Origin: Chromatiales bacterium
Lineage (GTDB): Bacteria; Pseudomonadota; Gammaproteobacteria; JAGRCI01
Assembly (NCBI GenBank): GCA_020445565.1
Contig: JAGRGI010000081.1
Coordinates: 4,412-68,411 of the forward strand
DNA length: 64,000 nucleotides
Direction: 5' to 3'
The position numbers and the translations under genes were made by a program. The notes under the pieces were generated by a model. That model did not search any database and had not been told where the DNA came from. It worked only from the letters and a program-made list of their open reading frames with translations. Below, piece after piece: positions 1-29,583 of this stretch. Positions within the stretch are counted from its first letter, which is position 1. Each line of letters begins with the position of its first letter.

Positions 1-1538
1 AGACCATAGCCGCGAAAACGCCCGGCACCGACGAGCACAGGCCCCTGCACTTCCTGATCGAACAGCAACAGCGCATGAGTGTGATAGCGATAACCGCCAT
101 CGCTCTTGCGCCGCAGGGCCGGAAACTGACGCGCATGGGGAACGCCCTCGTGCATCGCGACACCATTGAGTATCACCTCGCGGGGTCTGGGCAGACCAAT
201 GCGCTCGCAGGCGTCTTTGATGTTTTCTGCCGCCAATTCCCATTGCGCCGCACCTTTGAAATGGCGATCGAGGACGATGGGCGTGACACTGGCCCAGAGC
301 TTTGACGGCTGCGTCCAGGTATCCGGGGTGAGGCTCTTGGGTGGGATCTCGGCGATTTGCAGAGCGATGTCGCACTCGAACCATCGACCGTTGTAAAGCT
401 TGTGCTCGCGCGGCAGCCCGGTTTGCGCATCGATCAAATAGTCTTCCAGACAATTGCCCGCCTCCGCCGGGTCCAAACCCTCCGGCAAGGCAATGGCCAA
501 GCCCATGATGCGTCCGTCGGCATGGGGAAACCCGCTGAACGACAGTGGTAACAGGGCCATGTGAGGCTGTTCCGAGGGCGCCCCGTCGGGACGATGACCG
601 CTGAACCATTCGGGCGGTGGCTGGCGTCGGCAATGGGCCATGAGACTACCCCTGAAAGACTCCAGCAGGCGCAAGGTAGAAGGCAGAGTGAATGCGCGGC
701 CACGTAGCGTAAACACCAGCAAATGCGGCTGAAAGACCGTCCCCGCCGGGGCCGGTAACAGATCGTCGGGCCGTCGGGTATAGCCGTGCCAGAGCCCGCT
801 CCTGGGACGCAGACTCACCGGCACGCGCTCGCCAAATCGTTCATCGATAATTTGCTTCATGCGTTTTTTCTCCTTACCGGATGATTGGTCCACCCTGGCC
901 CGCAGGCGTGCGTATTCCAGAACCTCGGCACGATTGACGTCTTCCGCGAGGGCTTGCAAACGCCCTGCGGTGGGAACCCGAAGCCGCAGCTTGGGTACGC
1001 CGTTTGTGGGCAGCCAGGTAGCCGGCACGCCCTCATCACTCACCCACATTTGCACCAAAGACGCAGAATGGCCGATATGCGTGACCTTCTCAGCCAGCCG
1101 TTCCAATCCCTCGCGGTGTTGCGCGAGATCGGCATCCCAAATGAGGTGCACGACAGGATCGTGGGGAATAGCGACGGGAAAGTGCCGTTCGTTACGCAAG
1201 CGGTGCTCCGGCAGAACGGCCAAGCCGGCATCCTTTAGCTTGTCCAGCGCATGGCTGCCCGGAACCTCGCGGGAGACGCCGGTATCGTTCACCGGCACGT
1301 AACTGGTAACGGTTTGTCGAAAGCCGGCTTCGGAGGCGGCAAGAGCAGGCGGTGAGAGCGTTTCCAGCCAACGCAGGGCATCGCCCTCGACCGGATCCTC
1401 TCCGGTCTCGAACCAGGCGGCCGCCATGGCCATGAAAACCCGATCCGGATGGAGCGGCCATTCGGCCTGCTCTTTTCTGGCACCATCCGCCGCCGCCATC
1501 GCCCACCCGTTGAGGTAGCGAATGGCGAGTGCGAACAT
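1..1538 (-). CDS. csb2: Type I-U/I-G CRISPR-associated Cas5/Cas6-fusion protein Csb2 (GSU0054 family), 3'-truncated by the window edge. The tracker lists no ORF here because the frame is open to position 1.
   Basis: My translation of the minus strand from the ATG at 1538..1536 gives an uninterrupted reading frame of more than 510 aa down to position 1. The N-terminus MFALAIRYLNGW...EWPLHPDRVFMAMAAAWFE matches the Csb2 N-terminal signature. A glycine-rich RAMP loop (GRFRGYG) is present. The start overlaps the csb1 stop in ATGA. Confidence 0.6.
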   Translation of the reverse strand, partial: MFALAIRYLNGWAMAAADGARKEQAEWPLHPDRVFMAMAAAWFETGEDPVEGDALRWLETLSPPALAASEAGFRQTVTSYVPVNDTGVSREVPGSHALDKLKDAGLAVLPEHRLRNERHFPVAIPHDPVVHLIWDADLAQHREGLERLAEKVTHIGHSASLVQMWVSDEGVPATWLPTNGVPKLRLRVPTAGRLQALAEDVNRAEVLEYARLRARVDQSSGKEKKRMKQIIDERFGERVPVSLRPRSGLWHGYTRRPDDLLPAPAGTVFQPHLLVFTLRGRAFTLPSTLRLLESFRGSLMAHCRRQPPPEWFSGHRPDGAPSEQPHMALLPLSFSGFPHADGRIMGLAIALPEGLDPAEAGNCLEDYLIDAQTGLPREHKLYNGRWFECDIALQIAEIPPKSLTPDTWTQPSKLWASVTPIVLDRHFKGAAQWELAAENIKDACERIGLPRPREVILNGVAMHEGVPHARQFPALRRKSDGGYRYHTHALLLFDQEVQGPVLVGAGRFRGYG

Positions 1539-2743
1539 CAGTCTTCCCCCGTACCCGACTCCGCTGCCAGAACCTGGCTCCGCCGCACCAACTCGACCAG
1601 TTCGTCACTGGGCGTGAGCAGGATCTCCCCTTCCCAAGGCAAACCCATGGCGCGAGCCGCCTCTGCTGCTTCGTTGAACAGCGCGACGGCCTGCCCGGCG
1701 TCAAGGGTGTAGTTGTGCACGGAACCAGGACGATCCAACAGATCCCATGTTGGCTCAGACTGTGCGAATAAATGGCAGCGGGAACGTAGATCCACGTCTT
1801 GCCTTGCCAGGGTACCGGCCAGCAGGGCAAGGGCGGCCAGCAGGGTATGCGCCGAGCTATCGACTTGTGGATCGGAAATCGTCGAATCGCCGAGGGGGAA
1901 ACGTAGGCGACGTACCGCGCTCAGGGATATGGTGGTGGTTTGTACTGCACGGCGAATCGTAAACCCGCCGGCCGATAGGGTTGGCGTGACGTTGCCGTGA
2001 TTGGCTTCCGAGGGCTTTCCCTTGCCATCCTTGCCCAGCTTCTTAGCCTTACCTTGCTGCTCCAACGTCCAATCCGGCTTGTCGGTCGACGGAACCGGAT
2101 TTTCGTAAACGGGGCCGGCCCCGAGCATGATCTGGGCAGGATCGATGCGGCTACCCGTCTTCACGCCGGGTACGGCGCGATAACCGACGATTTCGGAAAC
2201 GATGGCCCGCTGAAACTTGGCCCCCAGGCCACCGCGAGGGCCGGTGGAATCCCAGATTCCGAACACCAATGCGGTGGGACACAGGCCGAACAGGCCCGTC
2301 GCATTGCGAACATCAGCGTGGTCAAGCACCCTGCCCTTTTCCGATTTACGAAAGATGGTGCCCTCGAACAGGCTGTCACGGAACAAGGCATCGGCGACCC
2401 GATGAGGCGCCTCCAGACTGCTTACCTCGAACTTCTTCAAGAGCGCTTGCTGGTCGAATCGCGTCGTCATCAGCGGCAATTGGATTCGCCCGCGCCGATG
2501 GGAATCCAGCAACGCAAGTTCCATGCGATTGGCCTGGCTTTGTACGGAATCCAGCAGTACACAGGTTACGATCTCCCCGGTCGCCGGTTCCATGCGTTCT
2601 TCGGTCGCGTACTTGCCACCCTTGTAAGTGGGGGGAAAGATCTTGTCACCCTCCCCTCCCGCCGGCTGGTAATCCGTGGCGCATCGAAATGCGGCCGCGC
2701 CGCCTGCCACTGCGTTGCGCAGCGTATCAAAATCCAGATTCAT
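1538..2743 (-). CDS. csb1: Type I-U/I-G CRISPR-associated Cas7 (Csb1, GSU0053 family)
   Basis: 401-aa ORF with motifs KIFPPTYKGG and LLDSVQSQANRMELALL that I recall from the Cas7/Csb1 family. A GGAG Shine-Dalgarno sits 9-12 nt upstream of the ATG. The gene is followed by csb2 with an ATGA overlap. Confidence 0.65.
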   Translation of the reverse strand: MNLDFDTLRNAVAGGAAAFRCATDYQPAGGEGDKIFPPTYKGGKYATEERMEPATGEIVTCVLLDSVQSQANRMELALLDSHRRGRIQLPLMTTRFDQQALLKKFEVSSLEAPHRVADALFRDSLFEGTIFRKSEKGRVLDHADVRNATGLFGLCPTALVFGIWDSTGPRGGLGAKFQRAIVSEIVGYRAVPGVKTGSRIDPAQIMLGAGPVYENPVPSTDKPDWTLEQQGKAKKLGKDGKGKPSEANHGNVTPTLSAGGFTIRRAVQTTTISLSAVRRLRFPLGDSTISDPQVDSSAHTLLAALALLAGTLARQDVDLRSRCHLFAQSEPTWDLLDRPGSVHNYTLDAGQAVALFNEAAEAARAMGLPWEGEILLTPSDELVELVRRSQVLAAESGTGED

Positions 2744-2984
2744 GGGTCAGTTCTCCAATGTGGTTCCACTGTCACTGCGCGCAACGCGCAAACTTCCAAA
2801 AAAAGCTGTTCCCGTGCGATCCAGACAAATTCCGGCGCGGTTACACTAATACCACGCCAGCAACTGTCTGCGACGTAGCCGCGTCCTCCAAGTCATCAGC
2901 GTAGTACGCCCTCATGAAATAGGGAAATCGGGTACAACGGTGGTCAGACAGTGAGACCGGAAATATAGCCGAGCGAGTACCTAC

Positions 2985-3048
2985 TCGGCGCACATCCGAG
3001 CTTTCACCTCCTTGCGGCGGGATTCCGCCATTCCCTGGCGGAATGAGG
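2985..3048. repeat. Conserved ~64-nt element, copy 1: hairpin ATTCCGCCA-N5-TGGCGGAAT plus, on the minus strand, the SD AAGGAGGTGA and an ATG. It lies ~245 bp upstream of csb1.
   Basis: About 58 of 64 nt are identical to 29408..29471. The inverted repeat at 3022..3044 is perfect. On the minus strand, a consensus SD complementary to the 16S rRNA 3' end precedes an ATG that opens a 4-codon mini-ORF (MCAE*). Confidence 0.6.
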
Positions 3049-3077
3049 GCAGCGCAGCAATCGAAATCGGCTGACCC

Positions 3078-3323
3078 TCACCCCTCCAACTTCTTCAGCG
3101 CCTTTCTCCCCTTGTTCCGTTGGGCATGGAGTATCTGATAGCGCTTTTTCAGCATGTCGCGCTTTTCACCTTTACCAACCTTTCGGCACTTGGCGAGGAT
3201 GGCCTTTTCCTTCTTTCGAATCTGATCGACCAGCTTTTCCAGTTCGTCGATCTTCTTTTTGCGCCGCTTCGCCCCAAGATCGAGCAGCTCACCCAGGCGC
3301 TCAAGCAGTTTCTTTCCGGTCAT
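3078..3323 (-). CDS. Small lysine/arginine-rich coiled-coil protein of unknown function (81 aa)
   Basis: Complete ORF whose codon usage matches neighbouring genes; it is highly basic, e.g. KRRKKKIDELEKLVDQIRKKEK. It sits between the Na/Pi transporter gene and the cas operon leader. Confidence 0.45.
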   Translation of the reverse strand: MTGKKLLERLGELLDLGAKRRKKKIDELEKLVDQIRKKEKAILAKCRKVGKGEKRDMLKKRYQILHAQRNKGRKALKKLEG

Positions 3324-5533: not shown

Positions 5534-7939
5534 TTAGCCTTCTGCATGGCGTTCAGAGCTAACGCCGGCCAGGGAAGCCACAAGATAGAAGGCGCCTGCA
5601 ACGATCATCGTGACAGCAAAACCGAACTCCACGATCATCAACGCGGCCAGCACTGCCCCAATCACAGAGGCACAACCATTGATGGCCCAGGCCCAGGGCA
5701 ACAGAGCAGCATCGCGCAGGCGGGACATCCCCAGCGGCAGGGGCAGACCGAGCAACACAGCCAAGGGAGCGAGCCAGAACAGGGCGAGGAACATCCGCGG
5801 CAACAACGCAAGATCGGCTGTCTGGCTGAAGATGACGTCGGCGAGCGACCATTGCAGCAGAGCAACGACAAGGATGGCTGCGGCTAACAAAGCAATCGCC
5901 CTGCCACCTGCAAACCGTTGAAGGCGCTCTGCCTGGGAGCTGCCCAGACCGGCGAACAACAGAAAACCGGCAAGGGTAAGAGATAGGGCATAAACCGGCT
6001 CGCCGAGAAAGCGTTGCAGTTGTTGCAGGCAGGCGATTTCGAAGGCCATGAACCCCACACCTATGGCGGCAAAATAGATCAACGTCGGCCAGCGACCGCT
6101 TCTCGTTGGGGCGGAACGCCAGAACAGCGGCACCACAATCAGCAAGCCGGCGAGGGGAATGGCCTGCGCCAGCGTGACGGCCAACAACGCCAGACCCCAG
6201 TCGATTTGCGAATAGCCGGACTGGGCCTCCAGTCGCAGCAGCCGGGGCAATTCCCCCCAGCGCATAAAACGGTGTGCAAATGGCCGGTCGTCCGTACTGG
6301 GCCTGATATCGAATGCGTAATTTGCGACAAACTCGCCACTTTGCGACCCGAGCAAGGCTTGCATGCCCTGGCAATAGGCCGGCCGCTCGAGCCGGTTGTA
6401 ACGATTGGCGTCGGCACAGGACGTGACCGGGTCGGCGTTGGGTCGAAAGGCGATGTCGAAAGAGCGGGATCGGGCGAATCGGGAGACCTTATCGATCTGC
6501 TCGCCGGTGATGGGATCTTTGGCAAGCAACAGCAGACCGGTCTTCCAGCCACGCAGGTAAACGAGGCGCTGGTCGGCATGTCCGCTTTCCGCCAGAGCCT
6601 CTCGGGCGGTGTTGAACAGGCGCAAGGAAGTCTTGGGCGGCAGGCTAAGCCAATGGGCAATGGCAACGAAGCCGCCCTCTCCCAGCAAGGCCAGGGCTCG
6701 CTCGAAGGCTTCACGCGTCAGCACCCAGTCGGCCTCGGCCGCATCCAGGCCAGGGGCGACTGGCGGGCCTCCCAGGGTACGATCCAGCAGGATCAGGTCC
6801 AGCCTTCCTGTCCCGGCATCCAGCACATGGCGTGGAAAGGCGATGTATTCCTGCACGCCTGCACGCTCGTACACATTTCCACTGAACGCAGCCAACCGCT
6901 GACGCAGAAGTTTCCCTCGCCCCGGTATGCGTTCCACCACTTCAATGGACTCGGCCCCATGGTGAATCGCCTGCAACAGCGGCAGCCCGCCTGCGCCATC
7001 GAGCAACAGCACGCGCGGATTTTGCACAAGCGCGTAGGGTAAGGCGGAGACGAGATAGTCGGTGAAGATAAGGCTGTCCGGGTCACCATCGAAGCGCGTC
7101 AGCGCGCCCAGGGAATCGCCGTTGAGAAACAGCGCCATCTGTTCGGGGATGGGCGTGGCGGCGCCCAGACTGATCCCCGGCGCGTGACGAATGGGAATGC
7201 TGTCGTTGCGAACCACGCTGAAGACACCTTCCACCCCGCTGTGCTCAAGCAAAACCTTCGCCCCCAACACTTGCCGGGCCTGACTCAGGTCCTTGTAAGG
7301 AGACGGTTCGGCTTCAAGCAGTATGAATGTGGGGTAGGTGGCAAGGCCGATCAGGGCAAGCACGGCCGCGTCCCAGCCGCGTGACAAGGCCATCTCCCGG
7401 CGTGCCACCAAGGCCGCCAGGACACCCAACAGCGAAACAACCGCCAGCGCCTGAACGGGAGCAAGCATCGCGAGCAACAGCAAAATCAGACCGGCGCCCA
7501 TGGCCGCACCGGCGAGATCGTAGGCGTAGAGCCGCCCGACCTCGCTGGACCGGAAGCTCAACGCCATGCCGATAGCGCATCCCACCGCCAGGAAAGGCAG
7601 GCTCAACAGCAGGAATTGCAGGCTCAGCCAGCCGAGTTGACGGTAGTCCCAGGCCAGTTCCAAGGGGTTGAACGGTACATGCTGCGCGAGCACGAAGCTG
7701 GCCGGCGCGGCCACGGCGAAACCGATTGCCGACACCATAAAGGCAAACTCAAAACGCGGTTGCAGCCACCTGCGCAGCAGGGCGACCAAACTGCCCCCGG
7801 CCCCGAAACCCAACAACGCCAGACTGATGGCGATGGCGGCAAAGTGAGACCACTGAACAATGGCGAACAGGCGAGTGAGCAACACCTCATAGGCCAGTGC
7901 CGCGCAAGAGAGCAGGAGAATACCGAATCTGGGCGCCAC
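5534..7939 (-). CDS. Spermidine-synthase-like (polyamine aminopropyltransferase fold) protein fused to large multi-TM domains
   Basis: 801 aa with 6-7 TM segments at the N-terminus, a central SpeE-like Rossmann region (LLLDGAGGLPLL...) and further C-terminal TMs. The start codon is GTG. The stop lies 5 nt from the pcm stop-proximal end, so the two are co-oriented. Confidence 0.65.
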   Translation of the reverse strand: MAPRFGILLLSCAALAYEVLLTRLFAIVQWSHFAAIAISLALLGFGAGGSLVALLRRWLQPRFEFAFMVSAIGFAVAAPASFVLAQHVPFNPLELAWDYRQLGWLSLQFLLLSLPFLAVGCAIGMALSFRSSEVGRLYAYDLAGAAMGAGLILLLLAMLAPVQALAVVSLLGVLAALVARREMALSRGWDAAVLALIGLATYPTFILLEAEPSPYKDLSQARQVLGAKVLLEHSGVEGVFSVVRNDSIPIRHAPGISLGAATPIPEQMALFLNGDSLGALTRFDGDPDSLIFTDYLVSALPYALVQNPRVLLLDGAGGLPLLQAIHHGAESIEVVERIPGRGKLLRQRLAAFSGNVYERAGVQEYIAFPRHVLDAGTGRLDLILLDRTLGGPPVAPGLDAAEADWVLTREAFERALALLGEGGFVAIAHWLSLPPKTSLRLFNTAREALAESGHADQRLVYLRGWKTGLLLLAKDPITGEQIDKVSRFARSRSFDIAFRPNADPVTSCADANRYNRLERPAYCQGMQALLGSQSGEFVANYAFDIRPSTDDRPFAHRFMRWGELPRLLRLEAQSGYSQIDWGLALLAVTLAQAIPLAGLLIVVPLFWRSAPTRSGRWPTLIYFAAIGVGFMAFEIACLQQLQRFLGEPVYALSLTLAGFLLFAGLGSSQAERLQRFAGGRAIALLAAAILVVALLQWSLADVIFSQTADLALLPRMFLALFWLAPLAVLLGLPLPLGMSRLRDAALLPWAWAINGCASVIGAVLAALMIVEFGFAVTMIVAGAFYLVASLAGVSSERHAEG

Positions 7940-8815: not shown

Positions 8816-10051
8816 ATGAACGGACATGATCCAAACACAACCGGCCTGGATTACTACCTCGTCGGCGGCGCCGTGCGTGACCGATTGCTGGGCCTGGAGC
8901 CGCGCGAGCGGGATTTCGTCGTTTTGGGAGCCAGCCCCGCGGAAATGCTGAAACGAGGGTTTTTACAGGTAGGAAAGGACTTTCCGATTTTTTTGCATCC
9001 CGTTTCACGCGAGGAATACGCCCTTGCCCGAACCCTTCGGCAACAGCAGGGCGCGGTGCACTACGGCCGGGATGTGACACTGAAAGAGGATCTATCGCGC
9101 AGGGACCTGACCATCAACGCCCTGGCGGAAACCGGCGACGGTGAAGTGATCGACTATTTTGGCGGAAGGGCGGATCTGCAGAACCGCGTGCTGCGGCACG
9201 TCTCCCACGCCTTCGCCGAGGACCCACTGCGCGTGTTGCGCGTGGCGCGATTTCAGGCCCGTTATGCCTGCCTGGGTTTCACTATCGCGGATGAAACCCT
9301 GGCCCTGATGAGGGAAATCGGCAACGCCGGCGCCCTGGAGTCGATCGCTCCGGACCGGATCTGGCTGGAATTTGACAAGGCCCTGGGCGGCCCCGCACCG
9401 GAGGTCTTCATCGAAGTTCTGCGGACTTGCGGTGCCCTGGGCCGTCTGCTGCCGGAGCTGGACCGCCTCTGGGGCGTACCGCAAACGGCAAAATGGCACC
9501 CGGAGGTCGATACCGGCATCCACATGCTGATGGTGCTGCACCAAGCCCGTCAACTGTCCGACGACCCGGCCGTGCTGTTCGCCGCCCTCACCCACGATCT
9601 GGGCAAGGGCCTCACGGCCGCGGACACCCTTCCCGCACACCACGGGCATGAAAAACGCAGCGCGGAACTGGTGCTAGGACTATGCCGACGCTGGCCGGTT
9701 CCGAATCGTTACCGCGATCTGGCCGTATTCGTGGCCAGGGAACACGGCAAGATCCACAACATAGAAGAACTGCGACCAGGCAAGGTGCTGAGCATTTTGG
9801 AAGCAGCGGATTATTTCCGTCGTCCAGAGCGATTGCAAAGCGCGTTGCTGGCTTGCGAGGCCGACTACCGTGGCCGCCAAGGCCTCGAAGACCGGCCCTA
9901 TCCCCAGGCGCAATACCTGCGAACACTCGCCGTGTCGGCGGCCCAAGCCGATCTCGGTACGGCGCTGGAATCCGCTGCCTCCGGGAGCGACGTGCGCGAG
10001 CTGGTTCGACGCGTACGCCTACAGGCATTGAGCAAGGCAATGGGGCGGTGA
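8816..10051 (+). CDS. cca: Multifunctional CCA-adding tRNA nucleotidyltransferase with a C-terminal HD domain
   Basis: LVGGAVRDRLLG...RDFVV head domain and an HD motif (HDLGK). The start was chosen at the ATG nearest the conserved YLVGGAVRD N-terminus. Confidence 0.8.
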   Translation: MNGHDPNTTGLDYYLVGGAVRDRLLGLEPRERDFVVLGASPAEMLKRGFLQVGKDFPIFLHPVSREEYALARTLRQQQGAVHYGRDVTLKEDLSRRDLTINALAETGDGEVIDYFGGRADLQNRVLRHVSHAFAEDPLRVLRVARFQARYACLGFTIADETLALMREIGNAGALESIAPDRIWLEFDKALGGPAPEVFIEVLRTCGALGRLLPELDRLWGVPQTAKWHPEVDTGIHMLMVLHQARQLSDDPAVLFAALTHDLGKGLTAADTLPAHHGHEKRSAELVLGLCRRWPVPNRYRDLAVFVAREHGKIHNIEELRPGKVLSILEAADYFRRPERLQSALLACEADYRGRQGLEDRPYPQAQYLRTLAVSAAQADLGTALESAASGSDVRELVRRVRLQALSKAMGR

Positions 10052-10156
10052 TTTCAGGTACCAGCAACGCCTGGTCCTTGCCATTGGTTTTGTACATCCC
10101 TAACATGCAAGGTTTTTCACTGTTTCGGGTCGATGCCCGAGGGACCAGGAGCTGAC

Positions 10157-11350
10157 ATGACTACGGCCATCATGCCGACCTACGCACGTTTGCCTGTGCA
10201 ATTCTCCCATGGAGAAGGGGTTTGGTTGTGGGATGAGTCCGGCAAGCGATACCTGGACGCCCTCAGCGGCATCGCCGTGTGCTCGCTTGGCCATGCCCAT
10301 CCGGCCGTTTCCGGCGCCATTTGCGAGCAAGCGGGAAAGTTGGTGCACACGTCCAATCTGTATGGCATCCAACGACAGGAGGAACTGGCCCGGCGGCTGA
10401 CCGCGCTCACCGGGATGCAGAACGTCTTTTTCGCCAATTCCGGCGCCGAGGCCAATGAAGCGGCGATCAAACTGGCACGCTTCTACGGCCACAGCCGCGG
10501 CATCGACCGGCCGGCAGTGGTCGTAATGGAATCGAGTTTTCACGGCCGCACCCTGGCCACACTCTCGGCCACCGGCAATGCAAAGATCCAGGCCGGTTTC
10601 GAGCCGCTGGTCGAGGGTTTCGTGCGCGTGCCCTATAACGATCTTGATGCCATTCGCCAGGTGGCTGAACAACACGCCAATGTGGTCGCTGTGCTGGTGG
10701 AGCCGGTGCAGGGCGAGGGCGGCGTAAACGTCCCCACGGCAGGTTACCTCAACGGTATCCGCGAGATCTGCGACCGGCACCAGTGGCTGATGATGCTTGA
10801 CGAGATACAGACCGGCATAGGACGTACCGGGCGTTTCGTCGCCTGCCAGCATGAAGCGGTTGTGCCCGACGTGTTGACCCTGGCCAAGGCGCTGGGTAAC
10901 GGCGTCCCCATTGGCGCCTGCCTGGCCAGCGGCAAGGCGGCCGGCCTCTATGGACCAGGCAACCACGGCTCCACTTTTGGGGGCAATCCGCTGGCCTGTG
11001 CCGCGGCCCTGGCGGTAGTCAAAGAGGTTGCCGACGGCGGCTTGGTCGAGCGTGCCGCCGAACTGGGCGAGCGGATGCTGAACGGCTTTCGCGACAGGCT
11101 GACCGGCCGGTCTGGGGTGGTCGACTTGCGCGGCAAGGGCCTGATGATCGGCATTCAACTGGGGCGGCCCTGCACGGAACTGGTGAAGCAGGCCTTGTCG
11201 CAGGGACTTTTGATCAACGTCACCGCCGGCAGCACGATTCGATTGTTGCCGCCACTGATCCTGAGCGACGCCGAGGCTGATCAAATTGTCGAAGGCGTCA
11301 GTGATCTGGTACTCAACTTCCTGGAGCAGGCGGCCGAAACCGCAGCCTGA
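10157..11350 (+). CDS. argD: Acetylornithine aminotransferase (class III PLP aminotransferase)
   Basis: PTYARLPV..FSHGEGVWLWD..; LDEIQTGIGRTG; adjacent to argF. Confidence 0.85.
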   Translation: MTTAIMPTYARLPVQFSHGEGVWLWDESGKRYLDALSGIAVCSLGHAHPAVSGAICEQAGKLVHTSNLYGIQRQEELARRLTALTGMQNVFFANSGAEANEAAIKLARFYGHSRGIDRPAVVVMESSFHGRTLATLSATGNAKIQAGFEPLVEGFVRVPYNDLDAIRQVAEQHANVVAVLVEPVQGEGGVNVPTAGYLNGIREICDRHQWLMMLDEIQTGIGRTGRFVACQHEAVVPDVLTLAKALGNGVPIGACLASGKAAGLYGPGNHGSTFGGNPLACAAALAVVKEVADGGLVERAAELGERMLNGFRDRLTGRSGVVDLRGKGLMIGIQLGRPCTELVKQALSQGLLINVTAGSTIRLLPPLILSDAEADQIVEGVSDLVLNFLEQAAETAA

Positions 11351-11374
11351 CATCTGGGCACACAGGACGATAGC

Positions 11375-12298
11375 GTGAGTTCTGCAAGCGAAGTACGGCA
11401 TTTCCTGAGCATTCTCGACCTGGATCGGGAGGAACATCTGGGCCTGATAGAGCGCGCCATCGAACTCAAGGCGATGCAATACGCGGGCGAGATCTACGAA
11501 CCCCTCAAAAACCGCACCCTGGGGATGATCTTCGAGAAGTCTTCGACCCGCACCAGGGTCGCCTTTGAGGTGGCCATGGTGCAGTTTGGCGGCGCGGCGA
11601 TCTTCCTGTCTCCCCGCGACACCCAATTGGGGCGCGGAGAGCCTGTTGAAGACAGCGCCCGCGTGGTGTCTCGCATGGTGGACTGCGTGATGATTCGCAC
11701 CTATAGCCACGCGCTGGTTGAACGCTTCGCCCATCATGCAAGGGTGCCGGTCATCAACGCCTTGACCGACAGGCACCATCCCTGCCAGTTGCTTGCCGAT
11801 ATGCAGACCTACCGGGAGCACCGCGGCAGTATTCAGGGCCGCAACGTGGCCTGGATTGGCGACGGCAACAATATGTGTCACTCCTACATAGAGACGGCAC
11901 GACGCTACCGGTTCAAACTGCGCATAGCCTGCCCCAAAGGCTATGAACCCGATGCGGAAATCCTGAGCGCCAACAGCGAGTGGGCGGAAGTGGTAGACAG
12001 TCCGCAGGAGGCTGCGACCGGGGCCGATCTGTTGGTTACCGATGTTTGGGCAAGCATGGGCCAGGAGGAAGAAGCCGAGACCAGACATCGGGTCTTCGAA
12101 CCCTACCAGGTCAATACCCAGCTCATGTCCTTGACCGCGGACGACGCTCTTTTTATGCACTGCCTGCCGGCCCACCGTGGAGAAGAGGTCACGGCCGAGG
12201 TGATCGACGGTCCCAAGAGCGTGGTCTGGGACGAAGCCGAGAATCGCCTGCATGCCCAAAAAGCCCTGCTGGAGTTTCTTCTCACCGGAGCCCGGTAG
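11375..12298 (+). CDS. argF: Ornithine carbamoyltransferase
   Basis: STRTR carbamoyl-phosphate motif, [11 protein letters not shown] and DVWASMG motifs. Confidence 0.85.
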
Positions 12299-12304
12299 AA
12301 ACCC

Positions 12305-13378
12305 ATGAGCCTGCTTGACGTCAATGGCATCGAATGCCGTTACGGCGACACTGTGGTCGCCGCAGATGTCACCCTGCGCGTCAACAAGGGGGCCGTGGTA
12401 GGGCTGTTGGGGCCTAGCGGCTGCGGAAAGACCACTGTGCTGCGGGCCATTGCCGGTTTTCAACCCCTGCAACAGGGGGAGATTCGGCTCGACGGACGAG
12501 TGATTTCCTCCCCCGGATTCACCCTCGCCCCGGAGAAGCGCCATCTGGGCATGGTGTTTCAGGACTACTCCCTGTTCCCCCACATGGATGTCGGCGACAA
12601 CATCTGCTTCGGGCTCCGCGGCCTGGGCCGTGCCGAGCGCGGCCGGCTGGCCGAGGAGATGCTGGAAACGGTCGGCCTGGCAGGTTTTTGCAAACGCTTT
12701 CCTCATGAACTCTCCGGCGGGCAGCAACAGCGGGTCGCGCTGGCACGGGCGCTGGCGCCGAAGCCCGATCTGCTGCTGCTGGACGAGCCCTTTTCAAGCC
12801 TGGACGTGGAGCTGCGCGAGCATCTGAGTGTCGAGGTGCGCGAAATCCTCAAACACCGAGGCACAACGGCAATCCTGGTCACTCACGATCAGCATGAAGC
12901 CTTTGCGATGTGCGAAATGGTCGGCGTGATGAATCACGGCCGAATCCTGCAATGGGACACGCCCTACCAGCTCTATCACGAACCGAACCACCGCTTTGTG
13001 GCCGATTTCATCGGCCAGGGCGAATTCCTGACCGCGACGGTATTGGCAGACAATCGATTGGAAACCGAATTGGGCATCGTGCGCTGCCGCAGACAGGTCC
13101 AGTGGCCGGCGGGCACGCAGGTCGAGGTGCTCTTCCGTCCCGACGATATACTGCCGGAACCGGAAAGTCCGTTGCGCACAGTCGTGATCGACAAGGCATT
13201 CAAAGGGGCGGAGACCCTCTACACCCTACGCCTGGAAACCGGCGCCACGGTGGTCTCCCTGTTCCCCAGTCACCACAATCACGAGATTGGCGAGCGAGTA
13301 GGCATTCGCATCGATGCCGAGCATGTGGTCGCCTTTCCCATAGAGACGGCCGCAACGGCCCATACGGAAGCACTATGA
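12305..13378 (+). CDS. ABC transporter ATP-binding protein with a C-terminal TOBE domain (PotA/FbpC-like importer ATPase)
   Basis: Walker A GPSGCGKTT, signature LSGGQQQRVALARAL, Walker B LLLDEP. The gene ends overlapping the start of the next gene. Confidence 0.75.
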   Translation: MSLLDVNGIECRYGDTVVAADVTLRVNKGAVVGLLGPSGCGKTTVLRAIAGFQPLQQGEIRLDGRVISSPGFTLAPEKRHLGMVFQDYSLFPHMDVGDNICFGLRGLGRAERGRLAEEMLETVGLAGFCKRFPHELSGGQQQRVALARALAPKPDLLLLDEPFSSLDVELREHLSVEVREILKHRGTTAILVTHDQHEAFAMCEMVGVMNHGRILQWDTPYQLYHEPNHRFVADFIGQGEFLTATVLADNRLETELGIVRCRRQVQWPAGTQVEVLFRPDDILPEPESPLRTVVIDKAFKGAETLYTLRLETGATVVSLFPSHHNHEIGERVGIRIDAEHVVAFPIETAATAHTEAL

Positions 13379-14067
13379 AGGCAGGCATGGCGTTGCGACG
13401 CAGATTTCCTATTTTCATCCTGCTGATATTGCTGGGAGGCGGAAGCGCGTTCGGCGAAACACAATACGTGTCCGACGCCGTGAAAGTGACACTGCGTTCC
13501 GGGCCCAGCATCCAAAACAAGATTTTGCGCATGCTGCCGGTCGGCGCCCCGCTCAAGGTACTGGAGACAGACGAAAAGACGGGCTATTCGCGAGTACGTT
13601 TTGACGGCGATACCGTCGGCTGGATATTGACGAGGCAGCTTTCCCGTGAACCCAGTCCGCGCCAGCAGTTGGAAGAGACCCGGTCCCGTTTGTCGGCGGT
13701 CGAAACAAACAACGGCGCACTCGCCGAGGAACTGAAACAACTGCAAGAGCGTTTTACGAACACGGACGAACAACGCGCGAAGCTGCTGAACGACAACCGG
13801 CGGCTTGCAGAAGAACTCAAAGCACTTCAACAATCCGCAGCCAATACCCTGTTTACGGAGCAGGAAAATCTACGCTTGCAGAACAATGTTCAGGAACTGG
13901 AAAAACGCCTTTCAGATTTGCAGTTTCAATATGACGGCATTCAGCGGGAGAACGCCCGCGACTGGTTCATGGTGGGCGCGGGTGTGATTTTGCTGGGCAT
14001 ACTCGTGGGGCTCATCCTGCCACGAATGCGCTGGAAACGGCGCGGATCGAGCTGGGATACGCTTTGA
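13375..14067 (+). CDS. Bacterial SH3-domain protein (YgiM/TIGR04211-like): signal peptide, SH3, coiled coil, C-terminal TM
   Basis: Signal peptide, an SH3b-like segment (YVSDAVKVTLRSGPS...), a long coiled coil and a C-terminal TM helix. The ATG at 13375 lies inside the tracker's out-of-frame longer ORF. Confidence 0.65.
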   Translation: MKAGMALRRRFPIFILLILLGGGSAFGETQYVSDAVKVTLRSGPSIQNKILRMLPVGAPLKVLETDEKTGYSRVRFDGDTVGWILTRQLSREPSPRQQLEETRSRLSAVETNNGALAEELKQLQERFTNTDEQRAKLLNDNRRLAEELKALQQSAANTLFTEQENLRLQNNVQELEKRLSDLQFQYDGIQRENARDWFMVGAGVILLGILVGLILPRMRWKRRGSSWDTL

Positions 14068-14134
14068 TCGCGGACTGAAGGCCCCATCCGGCCAGCCCCA
14101 TGGGCGCCAGACCGGACGGGCAATTTCACCTTGC

Positions 14135-15832
14135 TCAGTCCGTGACCGCTCCCAGCGAAGCGGAACTCACCAACTTGGCATATTTCGCCAGTACGCCGCG
14201 GGTGTAGCGTGGCTCAGGTTGTTTCCATTGCGACAGGCGTTGCTGGATTTCCTCGTCGGAAACACCCAGGCTGAGGGCGTTGTTCACCGCATCGATCGTG
14301 ATGGCGTCGCCGTCGCGCACCACGGCAAGGGGTCCGCCGTTATAGGCTTCGGGCGTGATGTGGCCGACCACGAAACCATGGGTGCCGCCAGAGAAGCGGC
14401 CATCGGTGATCAGCGCCACATCGTTACCCAGCCCCTTGCCCATCACCGCCGAGGTCGGCGACAGCATCTCACGCATTCCGGGCCCGCCACGCGGCCCCTC
14501 GTAGCGAATCACGATCACATCGCCCTTCACCACAGTGCCGTCCAGGATGCGCTTCATGGCCTCTTCTTCGGAGTCGAACACGCGCGCCGTACCCTCGAAA
14601 CGCAGCCCCTCCTTGCCGGAGATCTTCGCCACCGACCCCTCGGGGGCGAGGTTGCCGCGCAGGATGCGCAGATGCGAATCCTTTTTGATCGGATTGTCGA
14701 GGGCGCGGACGATGTCCTGGCCTTGCATATAGGGCTGCACGTCCTTGAGATTTTCCGCCATGGTCCTGCCCGTGACGGTGAGGCAATCGCCGTGCAGCAA
14801 TCCGGCATCCAGCAGGGACTTCATCAACGGCAGGGTGCCACCGATGGCCACCAGCTCGGACATCATGTACTTTCCGGAAGGGCGCAAATCGGCCAGCACC
14901 GGCACTCGCTCGCCGATGCGGGTGAAATCGTCCAGGCTCAGTTCGACGCCCGCGCTGTGGGCCATGCCCAGCAGGTGCAGCACGGCATTGGTGGAACCAC
15001 CCAGGGTGATGACCACGGTAATGGCGTTCTCAAATGCCTGGCGGGTCATGATGTCGCGGGGACGGATTCCCTTTTCGAGAAGATTCAGCACCGCCTCGCC
15101 GGCCCGCTCGCAATCGGTTTGTTTGTCCGCCGAGATGGCCGCCTGGGCCGAGGAGTTGGGCAGGGACATGCCCAGGGCCTCGATAGCGGAGGCCATGGTA
15201 TTGGCGGTGTACATACCGCCGCAGGAGCCGGCGCCGGGAATGGCGCAGGACTCGATCTCGGCCAGCTCGGTATCGTCGATCTTATTGTTGGCGCGCTGAC
15301 CTACCGCTTCGAAGACCGACACGATATCCACCTTCTTACCGTGGTAGTCCCCCGGCATGATGGTACCGCCGTAGACGAAAACGGACGGCCGGTTGAGTCT
15401 GGCCAGCCCGATCAGACAGCCGGGCATGTTCTTGTCGCAGCCACCGATGGCGACCACGCCGTCGAAACCCTCGCAGCCGGCCACAGTCTCGATGGAGTCG
15501 GCAATCACCTCGCGGGAGACCAGGGAGTATTTCATCCCCTCCGTGCCCATGGAGATGCCGTCGGAAATGGTGATGGTATTGAAGATCACGCCCTTGCCGC
15601 CGGCTCGGTTCACCCCGGTCTCGGCCTCTTTGGCCAACTGGTCGATATGCATGTTGCAGGGCGTGACCATGGACCAGGTGGAGGCGATGCCTACCTGAGG
15701 CTTGCGGAAATCCTCGCGGGTGAAACCCACGGCGTGCAGCATGGCGCGGCTGGGTGCGCGCTCCATGCCATCCACCACTTGGGAGGAATATTTTCGACGG
15801 TCGTTGTTCTGGTCGTCAGGCCCGTTCGCCAT
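14135..15832 (-). CDS. ilvD: Dihydroxy-acid dehydratase
   Basis: Characteristic IlvD/EDD sequence throughout (CDKNMPG, SGGTHG, etc.). The tracker start at 15904 is a TTG; the ATG at 15832 (MANGPDD...) gives a canonical N-terminal length and has a GGAG upstream. Confidence 0.85.
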
Positions 15833-16003
15833 CTTGGTCAGCGCTCCACGATTGATCGGTTCGGATACGTAGCCGTTCGGCTGCCACCACGGTTGGCGGC
15901 TCAACTGTCTAAACAGCTACCGGCAAGCCCCTAATGATACCCCCTGCACCGCCTACTCGCGAAAGCCCTTGCGCGCCACCGGGCCGGAGCCCAGAATCTC
16001 CTC

Positions 16004-17173
16004 ATGCCTACCCCTCCCCTAATGACCATGATCGCCGACCTCATCGGCACGCCTTCCATGAGCAGCGTCTCGCCGGCATTCGACATTGGCAACGGCCCGG
16101 TGATCGAAAAGCTCGCGAGTTGGCTCAAGGACGCGGGTTTTGGCGTGGAGATCCTCCCCATCCAGGGCTATCCGGGCAAGTTCAATCTCATTGCGGTGCT
16201 GGGCCGCGGAGAGGGTGGCTTGGTGCTTTCCGGCCATACCGACACGGTGCCCTACGACGAAAACCGCTGGAGTCAGGACCCGTTTCGCCTTACCGAGCGT
16301 GACCAGCGCCTGTATGGGCTGGGCACCGCCGACATGAAATCCTTCTTCGCGTTGGCCATCGAGGCGGCCCGGGGACTGCGCCATGCAGACCTGAAGCGTC
16401 CCTTGACCATTCTTGCGACCGCCGATGAAGAATCCAGCATGTGCGGCGCGCAGGCGCTGCTGGATCAGGGCCGACGCCTGGGGGACTATGCCGTCATCGG
16501 CGAACCCACAGGGATGAAACCGATTCGCATGCACAAGGGTATTTTCATGGACGCGATCCGGCTCACCGGCAGGGCCGGCCATTCCAGCGACCCGGCACTG
16601 GGCAACAGTGCCCTGGAAGGGATGCATAAGGTGCTCGGCGAACTGCTCGCCTGGCGTTCGGAACTCCAGGCCAAGCATCGAAATCCCGCTTTTGCGGTGC
16701 CGGTACCGACCCTGAATCTGGGCCACATCCACGGCGGCGACAATCCAAACCGGATCTGCGGACAATGCGAGTTGCACATCGACTTGCGCCCGCTGCCCGG
16801 CATGGATCAAGGCGAGCTGCGTGCGCAGGTGCGCAACCGGCTTGAGACAGGTTTGGCCGGTAGCGGCTTGCAACTGGAGATTCTGCCCCTGTTCGAGGGC
16901 ATCCCTGCCATGGAAACTGCGGCACAATCCGCTATCGTGCGCGCCGCCGAACAACTCACCGGCAGCGAGGCACAGGCGGTTGCCTTCGGTACGGAGGCAC
17001 CGTATTTGAACGCCCTGGGTGTCGAAACGCTGGTGATGGGGCCGGGACACATCGACCAGGCCCATCAACCGGATGAATACATCGCTCTGGATCAATTGCA
17101 TCCCGGTGTCGATCTGTTGCGCAGTCTGATCCAGCGATTTTGCATGGAAAGCGCCCCCAGCGAGGACGCCTGA
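16004..17173 (+). CDS. argE: Acetylornithine deacetylase (M20 peptidase family)
   Basis: M20 metal-binding motifs (SGHTDTVP, ATADEE) over an ArgE-like length. Confidence 0.8.
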   Translation: MPTPPLMTMIADLIGTPSMSSVSPAFDIGNGPVIEKLASWLKDAGFGVEILPIQGYPGKFNLIAVLGRGEGGLVLSGHTDTVPYDENRWSQDPFRLTERDQRLYGLGTADMKSFFALAIEAARGLRHADLKRPLTILATADEESSMCGAQALLDQGRRLGDYAVIGEPTGMKPIRMHKGIFMDAIRLTGRAGHSSDPALGNSALEGMHKVLGELLAWRSELQAKHRNPAFAVPVPTLNLGHIHGGDNPNRICGQCELHIDLRPLPGMDQGELRAQVRNRLETGLAGSGLQLEILPLFEGIPAMETAAQSAIVRAAEQLTGSEAQAVAFGTEAPYLNALGVETLVMGPGHIDQAHQPDEYIALDQLHPGVDLLRSLIQRFCMESAPSEDA

Positions 17174-22977: not shown

Positions 22978-25900
22978 CGACGGGGGCCTCCTTGCGGATG
23001 GGTAACGGTTCGGTGTCGCAGGCCGATCCAGACGGTCATCAGGATCAGCAACGCCAGGTTGGCGGAGTTCAACAGCGGCACGGCGAGAGGTTCGACTATG
23101 CCTTGGGGCAGGACAACCTGGAAATAGGCATAGGACAGGGTCTGCCAGTCTTCGTCGGCCTTGCGCAGACGACGCGGGTCCGGTGCGGGGCGTGCTTGCA
23201 GCAGACAGGCGTAGTTGCCGGGGGGCAGTTCGGCGGTGTCGATGGCTTCCTGGTGTTCTGGGGCGTCGCCGTTGAGGGTGTCCAGGTTGCGGATTCGATC
23301 GAGCACTACCTCGCCGGTCTCCAGGTTGACGAGCCGCTGACGGATTTCCAGGTTGGTCAGGGTTCCGCCGAGAGTGCTGAGTCGATCCATGCAGGCGTTC
23401 GCCTCGCCGCGGACGACCTGGGGCTTTTCGGTCTCGATCAGGCCGTTCAGGCTGCGATTGAAGGCTTGGGCGACGGTAAAGCCGGCCTCGTCGGTGGCAA
23501 GCAGGCCGAACCGGATATCCACGGCCTGGGCATGAACCTGGTAGGCGCCGGGTTCGGCTCCCGAAAGGGGTAGCGTCAGGCCATGTGGGGTTTGTTGGCC
23601 TGGGGCGAGTTGGCCAATGGGAATGCCTTGCCGCAGGATATCCGTACCCCGGGGATCGACTACCTGGACCTGCAAGGTAATGTCGGAAAACAGTGCGTCC
23701 GTACTGAGATTTCGCAACAGGTTGTCGATACGCACCAGGTCGTTGGCGTTGTACTCGGCCCGGTCGGTGGTGGTGCGCAGACTGGCTTGCCGGTCGGCGA
23801 GCAGGGTCGAGACGATTTGGAAGGGGGCGAGGTCTTCGTCGATCGGTTCGCCACGGTCGTCATACAGCAGACCGTGCAGTTGGTAGTCTCCGGTCAGGAT
23901 GCCGTTGGCGGGCCAGTCGACGCCGATGGGATGGCTGGTCCCCACGCTAAGATTTTCCAGATCCACGTCGTCGAAGCGGGTCACGACTTGGCCGTTGCTG
24001 TCTTCCACTTGCAGTACGGCGGTAAAGGTTCCGCTAAGTGCGCCGGTATTTAAGATGAGGGCACTGAGGTGAGCGGTGGCGTCCGAGGTGTAAGTCGGGG
24101 CATCGGTGGCGACGGTGAGGCTCCCGACCGTGGCGAGCGTCGCCAGGGGGATGGCCATTTGGTTGTTGACCTCGTTGCATTCGTCGATGGCATTGGCGGC
24201 ATCGACGACGACGTAGAGCTCGTTCTGGTTGAACAGTTCTACGGCATCGAGCGAAAGGTCACGATATTCGCCCACCGCCAGGGGCGCGACGATTTGGTCG
24301 CCGAGCAGGATTCCGCCGACGGCCGGATCGCCTTGATAAAAGGTCAGGCGGGCCTCGCCGGTGGGGGTAAGGCCGCCGTTGCCCACGCGTACCGTCAGAC
24401 GGGGACGCGCTTGCGAGGTCTGATCGAAGCGCAACAGGGATACGCTCAGATCCGGCAGGGCCAGTGGATCGCGGCCGGGGAAGGCGTTGAGGCGATAGGT
24501 ATTGTGGACCAGCCAGGAGGGTTGTTCGTGCGTCGGGATGGTGCCGTCGTCGTTGATGTTGGTGATGTGGTAGCTGTGCTGGTTCCAGATGGCGCGGGTG
24601 GGTGCCCAGTCGTCGTTGGCGGACTCGAAGGCATAGACGCCGGAGTCCACCGCCGGGTTGCCGTTGAAGATTCGTGCATCGGAACAGACCAGCAGTTCGG
24701 CATGGCCATCATTGTCGATGTCGGCGACGACCGGCATCTCCGTGCCGGTTCCAGAGAGCACGGGTCGAGCGTGCAGCACCTGACCATCGCTACCACGGTA
24801 GATACGCAGGAACCGCTCGTCGCGATACACGACTTCTGCGGCTCCGTCCCCGTCGAAGTCGAATGACGTCGAGCCAGTAACGGTAGAACTGTAGTCCTGT
24901 GTCGGCGACGACCAAAGAATGGAGCCGTCGGTGTCGAATACTGTGTAGCTGCTGGCCCCCGCGACAGCGATCTCTGGCCTGCCGTCACCATCAAAATCCG
25001 CAATGGTTGGCGCACCGCCATATCCCCCCCCGGAAGCACAACCCTGCCGCTGATTGCATGCCAAAGGCTCGCACTTGATCCGTCGTGCTCCAACAAATAT
25101 ACGTAGCCACCGCCAACGACCACAATTTCGGCAAAATCATCCTCGTCGAAATTGCCGACTGCGACGAAACCTTCCGGGACACCACTCCCCTCCAACACCA
25201 ATCCGTGACGGTCGTATGAATACACACTGCTCCCGGCAACGATTTCCGGGACGCCATCGAGATCGACATCCGCCACAGCAGAAACAACGGTATACAGGTT
25301 GAATCCCGAGTGACCTCCGAGGGCTCTGCCATCGGCGAGAACGTGTCCCTGGGCATCGTAAACGACCGCACCGACCACGATTTCCGGGACGCCATCGGCG
25401 TCCAGGTCGGCAATGACAATCGATCCGCCGGAGTCAGAGCGACCGGGCAAAGTCAGCTCGTCGCTCGCCCATTTGAATGTCAGGTCATTCTCGAAGGCGA
25501 GAAGCTGTTTGCCATTTTGGGAAGCGCCGATCACTTCCGGCACGCCATCGCCATCGATGTCGCCAATGGCAAGTTCGGTGATTGCCCCAACCAATTGATT
25601 GGGTGGGCTGGTGTACAGGGTTCTCCCGTCGTCTCCGCTTATCGCATAGATCTGACCGCCGTTGAATTGTCCATTTGGTACGGTGGGAAACACAATGTCG
25701 GGGACATCGCGAACACCGATGTGCCCATCGCCGTTGTCGTCGGTAAGATTTGCGACTAGGGGCGTGGAGATGACATCAATCCGCTCGTTCTCAAGGGCAT
25801 GAAATTTTACGACCGGATCGAATGTTCCAGGCGGCGATACTGGCAACCGGCACAGAGCAGACGAACTACCGACGTTATTCCCCTCCTCCGCCTCATCGAT

Positions 25901-28900: not shown

Positions 28901-29110
28901 CTCTGCCGTAGACTGAGTGGCGGTGGCGACATCGTCGGTCGTTGTGAGACTGCCATCGGGCGAGGAACGGCTGCCCAACCAGGCGATGCCCTCCGCAGTA
29001 CCTGCCCATCCAGGCATCACAGGCAAGCAAACCAATAGACAAAAAAGCAGGGACGCAATCGCGGACGGTTTTCGGCATGGCGGCCGAATCCATGAGTTAC
29101 GGGGTTCCAT
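22974..29110 (-). pseudogene. Giant secreted multidomain surface/adhesin-like protein (~2,040 aa if fused), split into two overlapping ORFs (24446..29542 and 22974..25064) by a frameshift at a homopolymeric G tract
   Basis: N-terminal signal peptide. Prenyltransferase/terpenoid-cyclase-like repeats (QNVDGGFGF, QRDDGGWGE, QNVDGSWNG). Three carboxypeptidase-regulatory-like domains. A cadherin-like 'putative Ig' domain, a PKD domain and two CARDB domains. At least 10 FG-GAP/VCBS repeats (DxDGDGxxE) spanning the frameshift. A C-terminal hydrophobic helix plus basic tail. Likely ATG starts at 29110 or 29125 (after MEPRNSW.../signal); the tracker's 1698-aa ORF begins further upstream at 29542. Confidence 0.6.
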
Positions 29111-29471: not shown

Positions 29472-29583
29472 GTACCGCCGACCATCGTCTGCATAGGAAG
29501 TGCCGCCCCCCACCAGCCTTGCCGCATTGCGGGAATGGGCATAGGATTGCCGAACTAAACTCAGCATCTCCGGAGGAAATGCC

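Follow-up and report, generated by a model that had tools for sequence, protein, structure and literature searches.

The left end of the window, by which we mean the whole 64,000-nucleotide stretch of DNA analysed, carries on its minus strand (positions 1-2743) what we read, with a probability of about 0.9, as the promoter-proximal half of a type I-G (formerly type I-U) CRISPR effector operon. The order of its genes is cas7g-cas5/6g-cas3g-short cas8g, followed by a leader of ~345 bp and a probable CRISPR array. A type I-G variant with cas3 and a short cas8 after cas7 and cas5-6 is of a kind already described, and the locus is an ordinary one: one more case of a cas7-first type I-G system with a half-size Cas8g after cas3, here from a Chromatiales bacterium that is uncultured. 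Apart from correct annotation, it is of little consequence. The gene-order variant was already known and most of the locus is annotated in GenBank, where PGAP had named three of the four operon proteins of the Chromatiales MAG as type I-U (MCB1876425-27: Cas3, Cas5/Cas6 and Cas7).

Identification of csb1 and csb2

The first gene of the operon, csb1 (cas7g; 1538..2743, minus strand), encodes a backbone subunit of 401 aa. The product is a Cas7 of the Csb1/GSU0053 family, as is characteristic of type I-G. It matched PF09617 (E-value of 1.1e-52, 178.8 bits, cut-off 25), TIGR02570 (67 bits, cut-off 38) and the PADLOC Cas7g model (E-value of 2.4e-49), and could be aligned over its full length with 20 relatives (46-70% identity). 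A scan of the contigs of GTDB genomes yielded only relatives with no more than 69% identity. The protein is recorded in GenBank as MCB1876427.1, 'type I-U CRISPR-associated protein Cas7'.

The second gene, csb2 (a cas5-cas6 fusion, Cas5/6g; 1..1538, minus strand), starts with an ATG at 1538-1536 that shares one nucleotide with the csb1 stop codon (TGATG). The window holds 512 of its 525 codons; the gene leaves the left edge at base 3, with the last 13 codons and a stop codon 39 nt past the edge. The complete gene (525 aa) can be read in contigs L001-L003, whose identity to the window is 99.9-100%. The product matched TIGR02165 (cas5_6_GSU0054) with 279 bits (E-value of 8.3e-83, cut-off 45) across profile positions 1-487 of 492, and PADLOC Cas56g with an E-value of 1.3e-113. 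Judged by its sequence, Csb2 is the single fusion of Cas5-like and Cas6-like parts that is typical of type I-G, with a predicted RNase activity. It corresponds to GenBank MCB1876426.1, 'type I-U CRISPR-associated protein Cas5/Cas6'.

Both genes at the left end of the minus strand thus scored above curated HMM cut-offs. The first-pass annotation had called a type I-U/I-G-like operon that begins with csb1 and had proposed TIGR02570 (Csb1) and TIGR02165 (Csb2) as the profiles to check it by; the two profiles, together with PF09617 and PADLOC, bear the call out. Searches of PDB sequences with Csb1, Csb2 and the 327-aa protein described below gave no matches, and no PDB chain for Csb1 was retrieved by phmmer or by a Csb1 profile search. 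The other 61 kb of the window contained no cas3, csx17, cas1/2/4 or CRISPR array. A tblastn search of the 64-kb window with Cas3g, short Cas8g, Cas4/1, Cas2 and a WYL regulator returned zero matches, and CRISPR array detection across the same 64 kb found none.

Genes Beyond the Left Edge of the Window

Contigs from at least five sequencing runs, 99.9-100% identical to the window, extend it leftwards. The order csb1-csb2-cas3g-short cas8g was read in L001, L003, L035 and L036, and the successive genes overlap by 1, 8 and 11 nt. The first cas gene is therefore cas7, and cas3 and then the short cas8 come after csb2, which is the order of the Cas8u1-type variant. The earlier expectation that the remaining cas genes lie beyond the left edge was correct, as cas3g, the short cas8g and the first repeat were all recovered there. 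Its proposed order, csb1-csb2-(csb3-cas3-cas4/1-cas2), is not the one found: the Cas8-like gene comes after cas3, and there is no cas4/1-cas2 between that gene and the array. The further suggestion of a minimal system is refuted by the full-length Cas3g and the Cas8g homologue downstream.

All 19 related loci that extend far enough show the same order; they come from one archaeon and from bacteria of many phyla. A six-peptide scan placed the variant in 27 GTDB species, and homologues of the short Cas8g form at least 889 clusters. These are the variant's own counts, not relative to the Csx17 type, and they give no sign of the rarity that had been supposed.

In L036, one of the contigs identical to the window, cas3g is a single ORF of 1012 aa. 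The product matched PADLOC Cas3g with 756 bits (profile positions 2-834 of 836), and its HD domain is C-terminal (residues 804-1004). The helicase with a C-terminal HD nuclease that marks a type I-G Cas3g is thus present, in contigs outside the window. In L003 the gene is split, and its helicase and HD halves matched TIGR02621 with 497 bits (cut-off 400) and 173 bits, respectively.

The 327-aa protein encoded after cas3g (GenBank MCB1876424.1, labelled 'hypothetical') matched NF049934, 'type I-G, Cas3-extension family', with 190 bits and PADLOC Cas8g with an E-value of 3.9e-68. The operon therefore has a Cas8g-family large subunit and no cas11 gene, as in other type I-G systems. A fold comparison with the Csx17 large subunit (649 aa) aligned 237 residues at 13% identity, and this match supports renaming MCB1876424.1 as a large-subunit homologue. 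Judged by size and secondary structure, this is a short Cas8g that lacks the Cas11-like helical C-terminal domain of Csx17, and R-loop stabilisation may therefore differ in detail from that in the solved complex. No solved structure for the short-Cas8g branch of type I-G was found in PDB sequence and fold searches. The branch is widespread, with the 27 GTDB species and at least 889 protein clusters given above. Some pipelines annotate the short cas8g as cas8u1.

CRISPR Repeat and Adaptation Genes

The assemblies end ~345 bp after the short cas8g, inside ATTTCCCGAGTAGAAATGCTCGGGCCTCA, which resembles in form the 36-38-nt repeats at related loci (e.g., CATTTCCGAGGCCCAACGGCCTCGGCCTCATTGAAGC in L011). 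The first 29-31 nt of repeat 1 (ATTTCCCGAG-TAGAAATG-CTCGGG-CCTCA) are covered and agree with the consensus of the relatives as far as ...GGCCTCA, where five assemblies end; all of the Logan and ENA contigs of the locus end in repeat 1. A type I-G array is recognised by hairpin repeats of ~36 nt with a -TTGAAGC end, and here the repeat tail and later repeats fall outside the sequence covered. The full form expected for the repeats is ATTTCCCGAGTAGAAATGCTCGGGCCTCATTGAAGC (36-38 nt). The exact repeat 29-mer was absent from JGI metagenome contigs, and a protein scan of JGI metagenomes with the short Cas8g gave no match.

The operon and the first repeat have the same orientation, and the DNA that separates the repeat from the short cas8g contains no cas4/1-cas2. 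A tblastn search for cas4/cas1-cas2 across the 64-kb window found none, and there was none in the ~4.4 kb recovered on the left, where the contigs break at the first repeat. Of the 21 relatives for which flanking DNA was available, 15 carry an adaptation module (a Cas4-Cas1 fusion and Cas2) within the fetched locus, in most cases after the short cas8g and before the array.

Region Upstream of csb1

The 334 bp upstream of csb1 (2744-3077) contain no credible ORF, and non-Cas genes follow. This agrees with the first-pass annotation, which had noted no csx17 or cas3 upstream of csb1. A Shine-Dalgarno sequence, GGAGA (2752..2756, minus strand), can be read 8 nt before the csb1 ATG. The non-coding stretch that includes it (2744..2967, minus strand), between the csb1 start and a terminator-like hairpin, would hold the operon promoter and 5' UTR; a scan of the csb1 leader for sigma-70 consensus promoters gave 0 sites. 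The hairpin, GCCGAGTAGGTACTCGCTCGGC followed by TATATTT (2968..2989, minus strand), was identified by a terminator scan and folding, and is a consensus match only, as the scan gave 2 sites where 1.3 would be expected in the region. The transcript of an upstream 81-aa ORF probably ends at this hairpin, which would thus set the ORF apart from the cas operon.

The conserved element that the first-pass annotation had placed in the leader is real. It is a dispersed repeat of 71 nt (2985..3055, minus strand) with a 9-bp hairpin (ATTCCGCCA/TGGCGGAAT), which lies 22 nt past the stop codon of the 81-aa ORF. A second copy with 87% identity lies at 29408-29478 (chance expectation of 0 matches), 26 kb away and upstream of an unrelated gene. 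The element is not linked to cas genes: among the fetched loci it was present only in contigs of the same organism and was missing from every related cas locus. Rfam gave no match, whether at the gathering threshold or with E<=1. On these three grounds the reading as a cas regulatory site or a known RNA was dropped, and the element is an organism-specific dispersed repeat that does not belong to the CRISPR system.

The 81-aa ORF (ORF81; 3078..3323) has no Pfam or NCBIfam match and belongs to no family. It was considered as a hidden cas or regulatory gene and rejected, since its PADLOC value of 0.0047 is at chance level and it is not found near csb1 in relatives. Past ORF81 lie genes for a Na/Pi cotransporter, an 801-aa membrane protein and PCMT, and no Cas or defence model matched among the genes upstream of csb1 (HMM and PADLOC). 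The genes that flank the locus (CCA-adding enzyme, PCMT and Na/Pi transporter) are chromosomal housekeeping genes.

Split cas3g and Alternative Readings of the Locus

What looks like a cas3 frameshift in two assemblies comes down to the length of a homopolymer, A6 or A7. The poly-A tract has six residues in L001 and L003, which derive from two sequencing runs and in which the gene is split, and seven in L036, L037, L038 and GenBank MCB1876425.1, each with one 1012-aa ORF. In L001 and L003 the frame changes exactly at GGA AAA AAG and the HD part continues in the -1 frame; a conceptual fusion aligns with the relatives. This would fit programmed -1 ribosomal frameshifting at A_AAA_AAG that yields a helicase-only product and the full-length helicase-nuclease. 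Such recoding is highly improbable given the one extra A and the intact ORF in the other four sequences. The RNA downstream of the slip site is no more stably folded than shuffled sequence (z = 0.05), the site falls in a non-conserved linker between the helicase and HD parts, and Cas3g is one ORF of 938-1051 aa in 16/16 relatives checked. Programmed frameshifting and a split Cas3'/Cas3'' pair were both dropped on account of the A7 sequences and the lack of a stimulatory structure. The A6 form may mean that part of the population is interference-defective, or may reflect assembly errors. We consider it unlikely that the A7/A6 tract is a real, recurrent length polymorphism, a phase-variable switch that would silence interference in part of the natural population and leave a DNA-binding-only Cascade.

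The split gene also bears on whether the locus is an effector module in decay or an orphan one, the remnant of a type I-G system whose adaptation genes are gone, whose cas3 is being lost and whose immunity has disappeared. The A6 tract in L001 and L003, a second 1-nt deletion in L001, and the failure to find cas1/cas2/cas4 in the window or the recovered flank would fit decay. However, Cas3g is intact in three other assemblies and the GenBank MAG with an end-to-end profile match, and csb1, csb2 and the short cas8g show neither truncation nor differences between samples. The adaptation genes of the closest complete relative (L009, below) lie on the far side of the array, which is where the present contigs break, and an adjacent adaptation module is commonly missing in type I-G (PMC11237760). 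We therefore regard decay as quite unlikely. Seen from inside the window, where cas7 and cas5/6 are the only visible cas genes, the locus could pass for a nuclease-free minimal Cascade borne on a transposon or plasmid, CAST-like or type IV-like; cas3g and the short cas8g follow csb2 immediately in overlapping reading frames, the neighbours are chromosomal housekeeping genes with no tns, tniQ or dinG among those called, and this reading has almost no likelihood. Equally hard to credit is a canonical Geobacter-type locus whose first two genes are hidden by misassembly or local rearrangement at the upstream junction of csb1. The expectation of the textbook order (PMC6547450) is the sole point in its favour, whereas four independent contigs (L001, L002, L004 and L035) agree exactly on the ORF81-leader-csb1 junction, cas3g and the Cas8g homologue are located downstream instead of upstream, and the csb1-first order is common to the 19 related loci.

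Proposed Mechanism

For this type I-G effector operon the analysis shows to which families the four proteins belong, the gene order with its conservation, and the first repeat. Complex assembly, activity, PAM and promoter position are inferred, the mechanism by homology with the characterised Thioalkalivibrio and Geobacter systems (PMC9638904, PMC6547450). Transcription would start somewhere in the 224 bp between the hairpin at 2968-2989 and csb1, and the four cas genes would be translationally coupled through their overlaps. Approximately seven Csb1/Cas7g subunits would coat the spacer, and the short Cas8g may bind the Csb1 backbone and tether Cas3g, whose helicase and C-terminal HD nuclease would degrade PAM-bearing DNA targets.

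Comparison with Known Systems

Type I-G loci of myxobacteria have been described as 'csb1-csb2 followed by cas3-cas8u1' (PMC11237760). A similar order is known from Bifidobacterium moukalabense, whose system has no cas8u2 and has cas3 after cas5/6 (PMC7284854), and Csb1/Csb2/Csb3 were reported in B. animalis (bioRxiv 10.1101/2022.08.19.504415). The present locus has the same four families in the same order as the myxobacterial variant, with cas7 first. Like the myxobacterial/Bifidobacterium variant, it has no csx17/cas8u2 and no cas11, and its repeat is palindromic and, as far as covered, of the -GGCCTCA(TTGAAGC) type. Beside the effector genes of the variant, an adaptation module is variable or missing.

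The textbook order of the Geobacter type is cas3-csx17-cas7-cas5/6 (PMC6547450). In Geobacter sulfurreducens and Thioalkalivibrio sulfidiphilus (PDB 8b2x) the order is cas3-cas8g/csx17-cas7-csb2-cas4/1-cas2, whereas here the backbone genes come first, followed by cas3 and cas8, and no cas3 with a ~650-aa csx17 is found upstream of cas7. The large subunit is half the size of that in canonical type I-G (327 aa versus 649 aa in 8b2x), and Csb1 is divergent, with no PDB chain retrieved for it.

In contrast to those relatives that carry the module before the array, the locus has its probable array directly after the short cas8g, with no cas4/1-cas2 interposed. It also has no upstream WYL regulator, which is present in L012, L023, L025 and L029. 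The closest complete relative in GTDB genomes is an Arenicellales MAG (L009, CAXXJB010000001.1), whose Csb1 is 69% identical. It shares the order csb1-csb2-cas3g-short cas8g, and 229 bp separate its short cas8g from the start of the CRISPR array. That array has the reverse orientation, in contrast to the co-oriented first repeat here, and cas2 and cas4g/cas1g come after it on the opposite strand.

The csb1-csb2 genes and their upstream region

The first-pass annotation had described a cas operon beginning directly with cas7 (csb1), with csb2 next and no csx17 or cas3 upstream. This observation was confirmed as written. The csb1 gene (cas7g; 1538-2743, minus strand; 401 aa) was matched by PF09617 (E-value of 1.1e-52), TIGR02570 (67 bits, cut-off 38) and PADLOC Cas7g (2.4e-49). 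The csb2 gene, encoding a Cas5-Cas6 fusion on the same strand, starts with the ATG at 1538-1536 and is truncated at base 3 by the left edge; its product was matched by TIGR02165 (279 bits, cut-off 45; profile positions 1-487 of 492) and PADLOC Cas56g (1.3e-113). The two genes share one base at the csb1 stop and csb2 start (TGATG), an overlap suggestive of translational coupling.

A Shine-Dalgarno sequence (GGAGA, minus strand) lies 8 nt 5' of the csb1 ATG, within a 334-bp leader (2744-3077) that has no credible ORF and carries a terminator-like hairpin at 2968-2989. Between the leader and a Na/Pi cotransporter gene lies a lysine-rich 81-aa ORF (ORF81; 3078-3323, minus strand) with a good Shine-Dalgarno sequence. 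It is identical to GenBank MCB1876428.1 (hypothetical), belongs to no family in Pfam or NCBIfam, and is not kept beside csb1 in relatives. Beyond the cotransporter are an 801-aa membrane protein and a protein-isoaspartate methyltransferase, and none of these four products matched Cas or defence models. The 801-aa protein (5534-7939, minus strand) is polytopic, falls in no NCBIfam or PADLOC family and has no recorded Pfam match. Searching the whole 64 kb by tblastn with Cas3g, short Cas8g, Cas4/Cas1, Cas2 and a WYL regulator gave no match, and the window contains no CRISPR array.

The operon beyond the left edge

Of the rest of the locus, which had been placed beyond the left edge, near-identical contigs showed cas3g, a 327-aa Cas8g homologue and a putative first repeat. 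Looking up the exact Csb1 sequence gave metagenome contigs that agree with the window at 99.9-100% identity over up to 10 kb and continue it to the left; looking up the 327-aa protein in turn gave more contigs, L036 among them. The complete csb2 encodes 525 aa, with its stop 39 nt outside the window. It is overlapped by 8 nt by cas3g (TIGR02621; PADLOC Cas3g), which has a C-terminal HD domain; in L036 this is a single 1012-aa ORF matching the Cas3g profile end to end (756 bits). The 327-aa gene comes next, with an 11-nt overlap with cas3g, and its product was matched by NF049934 ('type I-G CRISPR-associated protein, Cas3-extension family'; 190 bits) and PADLOC Cas8g (CAS-I-U large subunit; 3.9e-68), with no match in Pfam.

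In Thioalkalivibrio, Cas8g stably tethers Cas3 to the Cas7-Csb2-crRNA backbone (PMC9638904), and such a role fits the position and NCBIfam name of the 327-aa gene. From the homologous systems characterised in Thioalkalivibrio and Geobacter, we infer that Csb2 would process the crRNA, Cas7g would form the backbone, the short Cas8g would tether Cas3g, and PAM-flanked DNA would be degraded.

Two of the contigs (L001 and L003) have a cas3g broken at GGA AAA AAG, approximately 1.8 kb beyond the left edge (L003 4634-4639; same site in L001), where a tract of six adenines separates the helicase from the HD part, which lies in the -1 frame. The L001 gene also carries a CCC to CC deletion. Programmed frameshifting at this slippery-looking heptamer was considered and rejected: three other contigs (L036, L037 and L038) and GenBank have seven adenines and an intact cas3g, the site falls within a linker that is not conserved, and the RNA that follows shows no more structure than shuffled sequence. 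The difference is either an assembly error or a real population polymorphism.

Five assemblies all end approximately 345 bp past the 327-aa gene, inside ATTTCCCGAGTAGAAATGCTCGGGCCTCA. This sequence is built like the 36-38-nt repeats of related loci, such as CATTTCCGAGGCCCAACGGCCTCGGCCTCATTGAAGC in L011, with a (G/A)TTTCC-type 5' end, a GC-rich 6-bp stem and GGCCTCA; the relatives continue with TTGAAGC, the published I-G repeat signature (PMC11237760). From this shared build, ATTTCCCGAGTAGAAATGCTCGGGCCTCA was read as repeat 1 of an array co-oriented with the operon, and the contig breaks as having the usual assembly reason. All contigs within reach end in this repeat, and neither the body of the array nor an adaptation module was seen in them.

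Comparison with known and related loci

In Geobacter the genes stand in the canonical order, cas3-cas8u2(csx17)-cas7-cas5/6-cas4/1-cas2 (PMC6547450); type I-G of Thioalkalivibrio shares the four effector subunits, Cas3, Cas8g/Csx17, Cas7 and Csb2 (PMC9638904). The csb1-first order is already in the literature, as csb1-csb2-cas3-cas8u1 in myxobacteria (PMC11237760). The Bifidobacterium moukalabense I-G locus is without cas8u2 and has cas3 between cas5/6 and cas1/4 (PMC7284854). Curated models exist for all four proteins, and identical sequences have been deposited in GenBank from a Chromatiales MAG: MCB1876427.1 ('type I-U CRISPR-associated protein Cas7'), MCB1876426.1 ('Cas5/Cas6'), MCB1876425.1 ('helicase/endonuclease Cas3', 1012 aa) and, for the 327-aa protein, MCB1876424.1 ('hypothetical protein KDH88_10650'). 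The finding of the first-pass annotation is real and its core interpretation correct; the gene order and content are nothing new, and the locus is an ordinary, already annotated case of a documented type I-G architecture.

A Csb1 search across GTDB, with one genome for each species, identified 27 loci at 43-69% identity, among them loci in Gammaproteobacteria, Betaproteobacteria, Desulfobacterota, Bacillota, Verrucomicrobiota, Planctomycetota, Myxococcota, Binatia and a Methanomassiliicoccaceae archaeon. The order csb1-csb2-cas3g-short cas8g was present in all 19 loci with enough fetched DNA, none of which had a cas3 or cas8 homologue upstream of csb1. Cas3g was a single ORF of 938-1051 aa in 16/16 loci checked. 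Of 21 loci for which flanking DNA was available, 15 encode cas4g/cas1g (NF049935, 684-815 bits), accompanied in seven of them by a recognisable cas2. The usual place of this adaptation module is between short cas8g and array; in one locus it is instead upstream of csb1, and in L009 it is found past the array on the opposite strand. The array is directly 3' of the short cas8g in L009, L016 and L028, as is the putative array in this organism. Four related loci (L012 8819-9784, L023 8881-9861, L025 8909-9877 and L029 864-1805) encode an HTH_11-WYL-WCX regulator directly 5' of csb1 and on its strand, whereas this window has no counterpart.

In the three nearest proteobacterial relatives (L008 11200-12972, L009 11194-13527 and L014 11380-13713), the tblastn match to Csb2 has a gap of 0.4-0.8 kb, and the two pieces in L009 also overlap in the query, suggesting an insertion, extra domain or partial duplication within csb2. 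In L016, a Methanomassiliicoccaceae MAG locus (9814-16599) with arrays on both sides, the csb1 match has three in-frame stops, and the csb2 and cas3 matches are fragmented; the locus may be decayed, or this may be an effect of UAG/pyrrolysine decoding in this archaeal lineage.

A dispersed repeat in the csb1 leader

The 'conserved element' previously noted in the leader does exist, as a 71-nt sequence with two copies (2985-3055, 22 nt past the ORF81 stop, and 29408-29478) of 87% identity, but it has no cas link. The element has a 9-bp hairpin (ATTCCGCCA/TGGCGGAAT) followed by GGAGGTGAAAGCYCGGATGTGCGCCGA, and both copies are intergenic, in the same orientation, and 5' of a minus-strand gene. 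It has no Rfam match; no related cas locus contains it, and among the fetched loci only same-organism contigs do. The element is a dispersed repeat specific to this organism, and its use as evidence of cas regulation was rejected on the grounds of the second copy elsewhere and its absence from related cas loci.

The second copy adjoins an ORF of up to 1698 aa (24446-29542, minus strand). As the annotated-length start would overlap the 71-nt repeat, the true start is probably further downstream. This ORF contains internal 27-nt direct repeats at 25233-25550, with a spacing of 138-153 nt.
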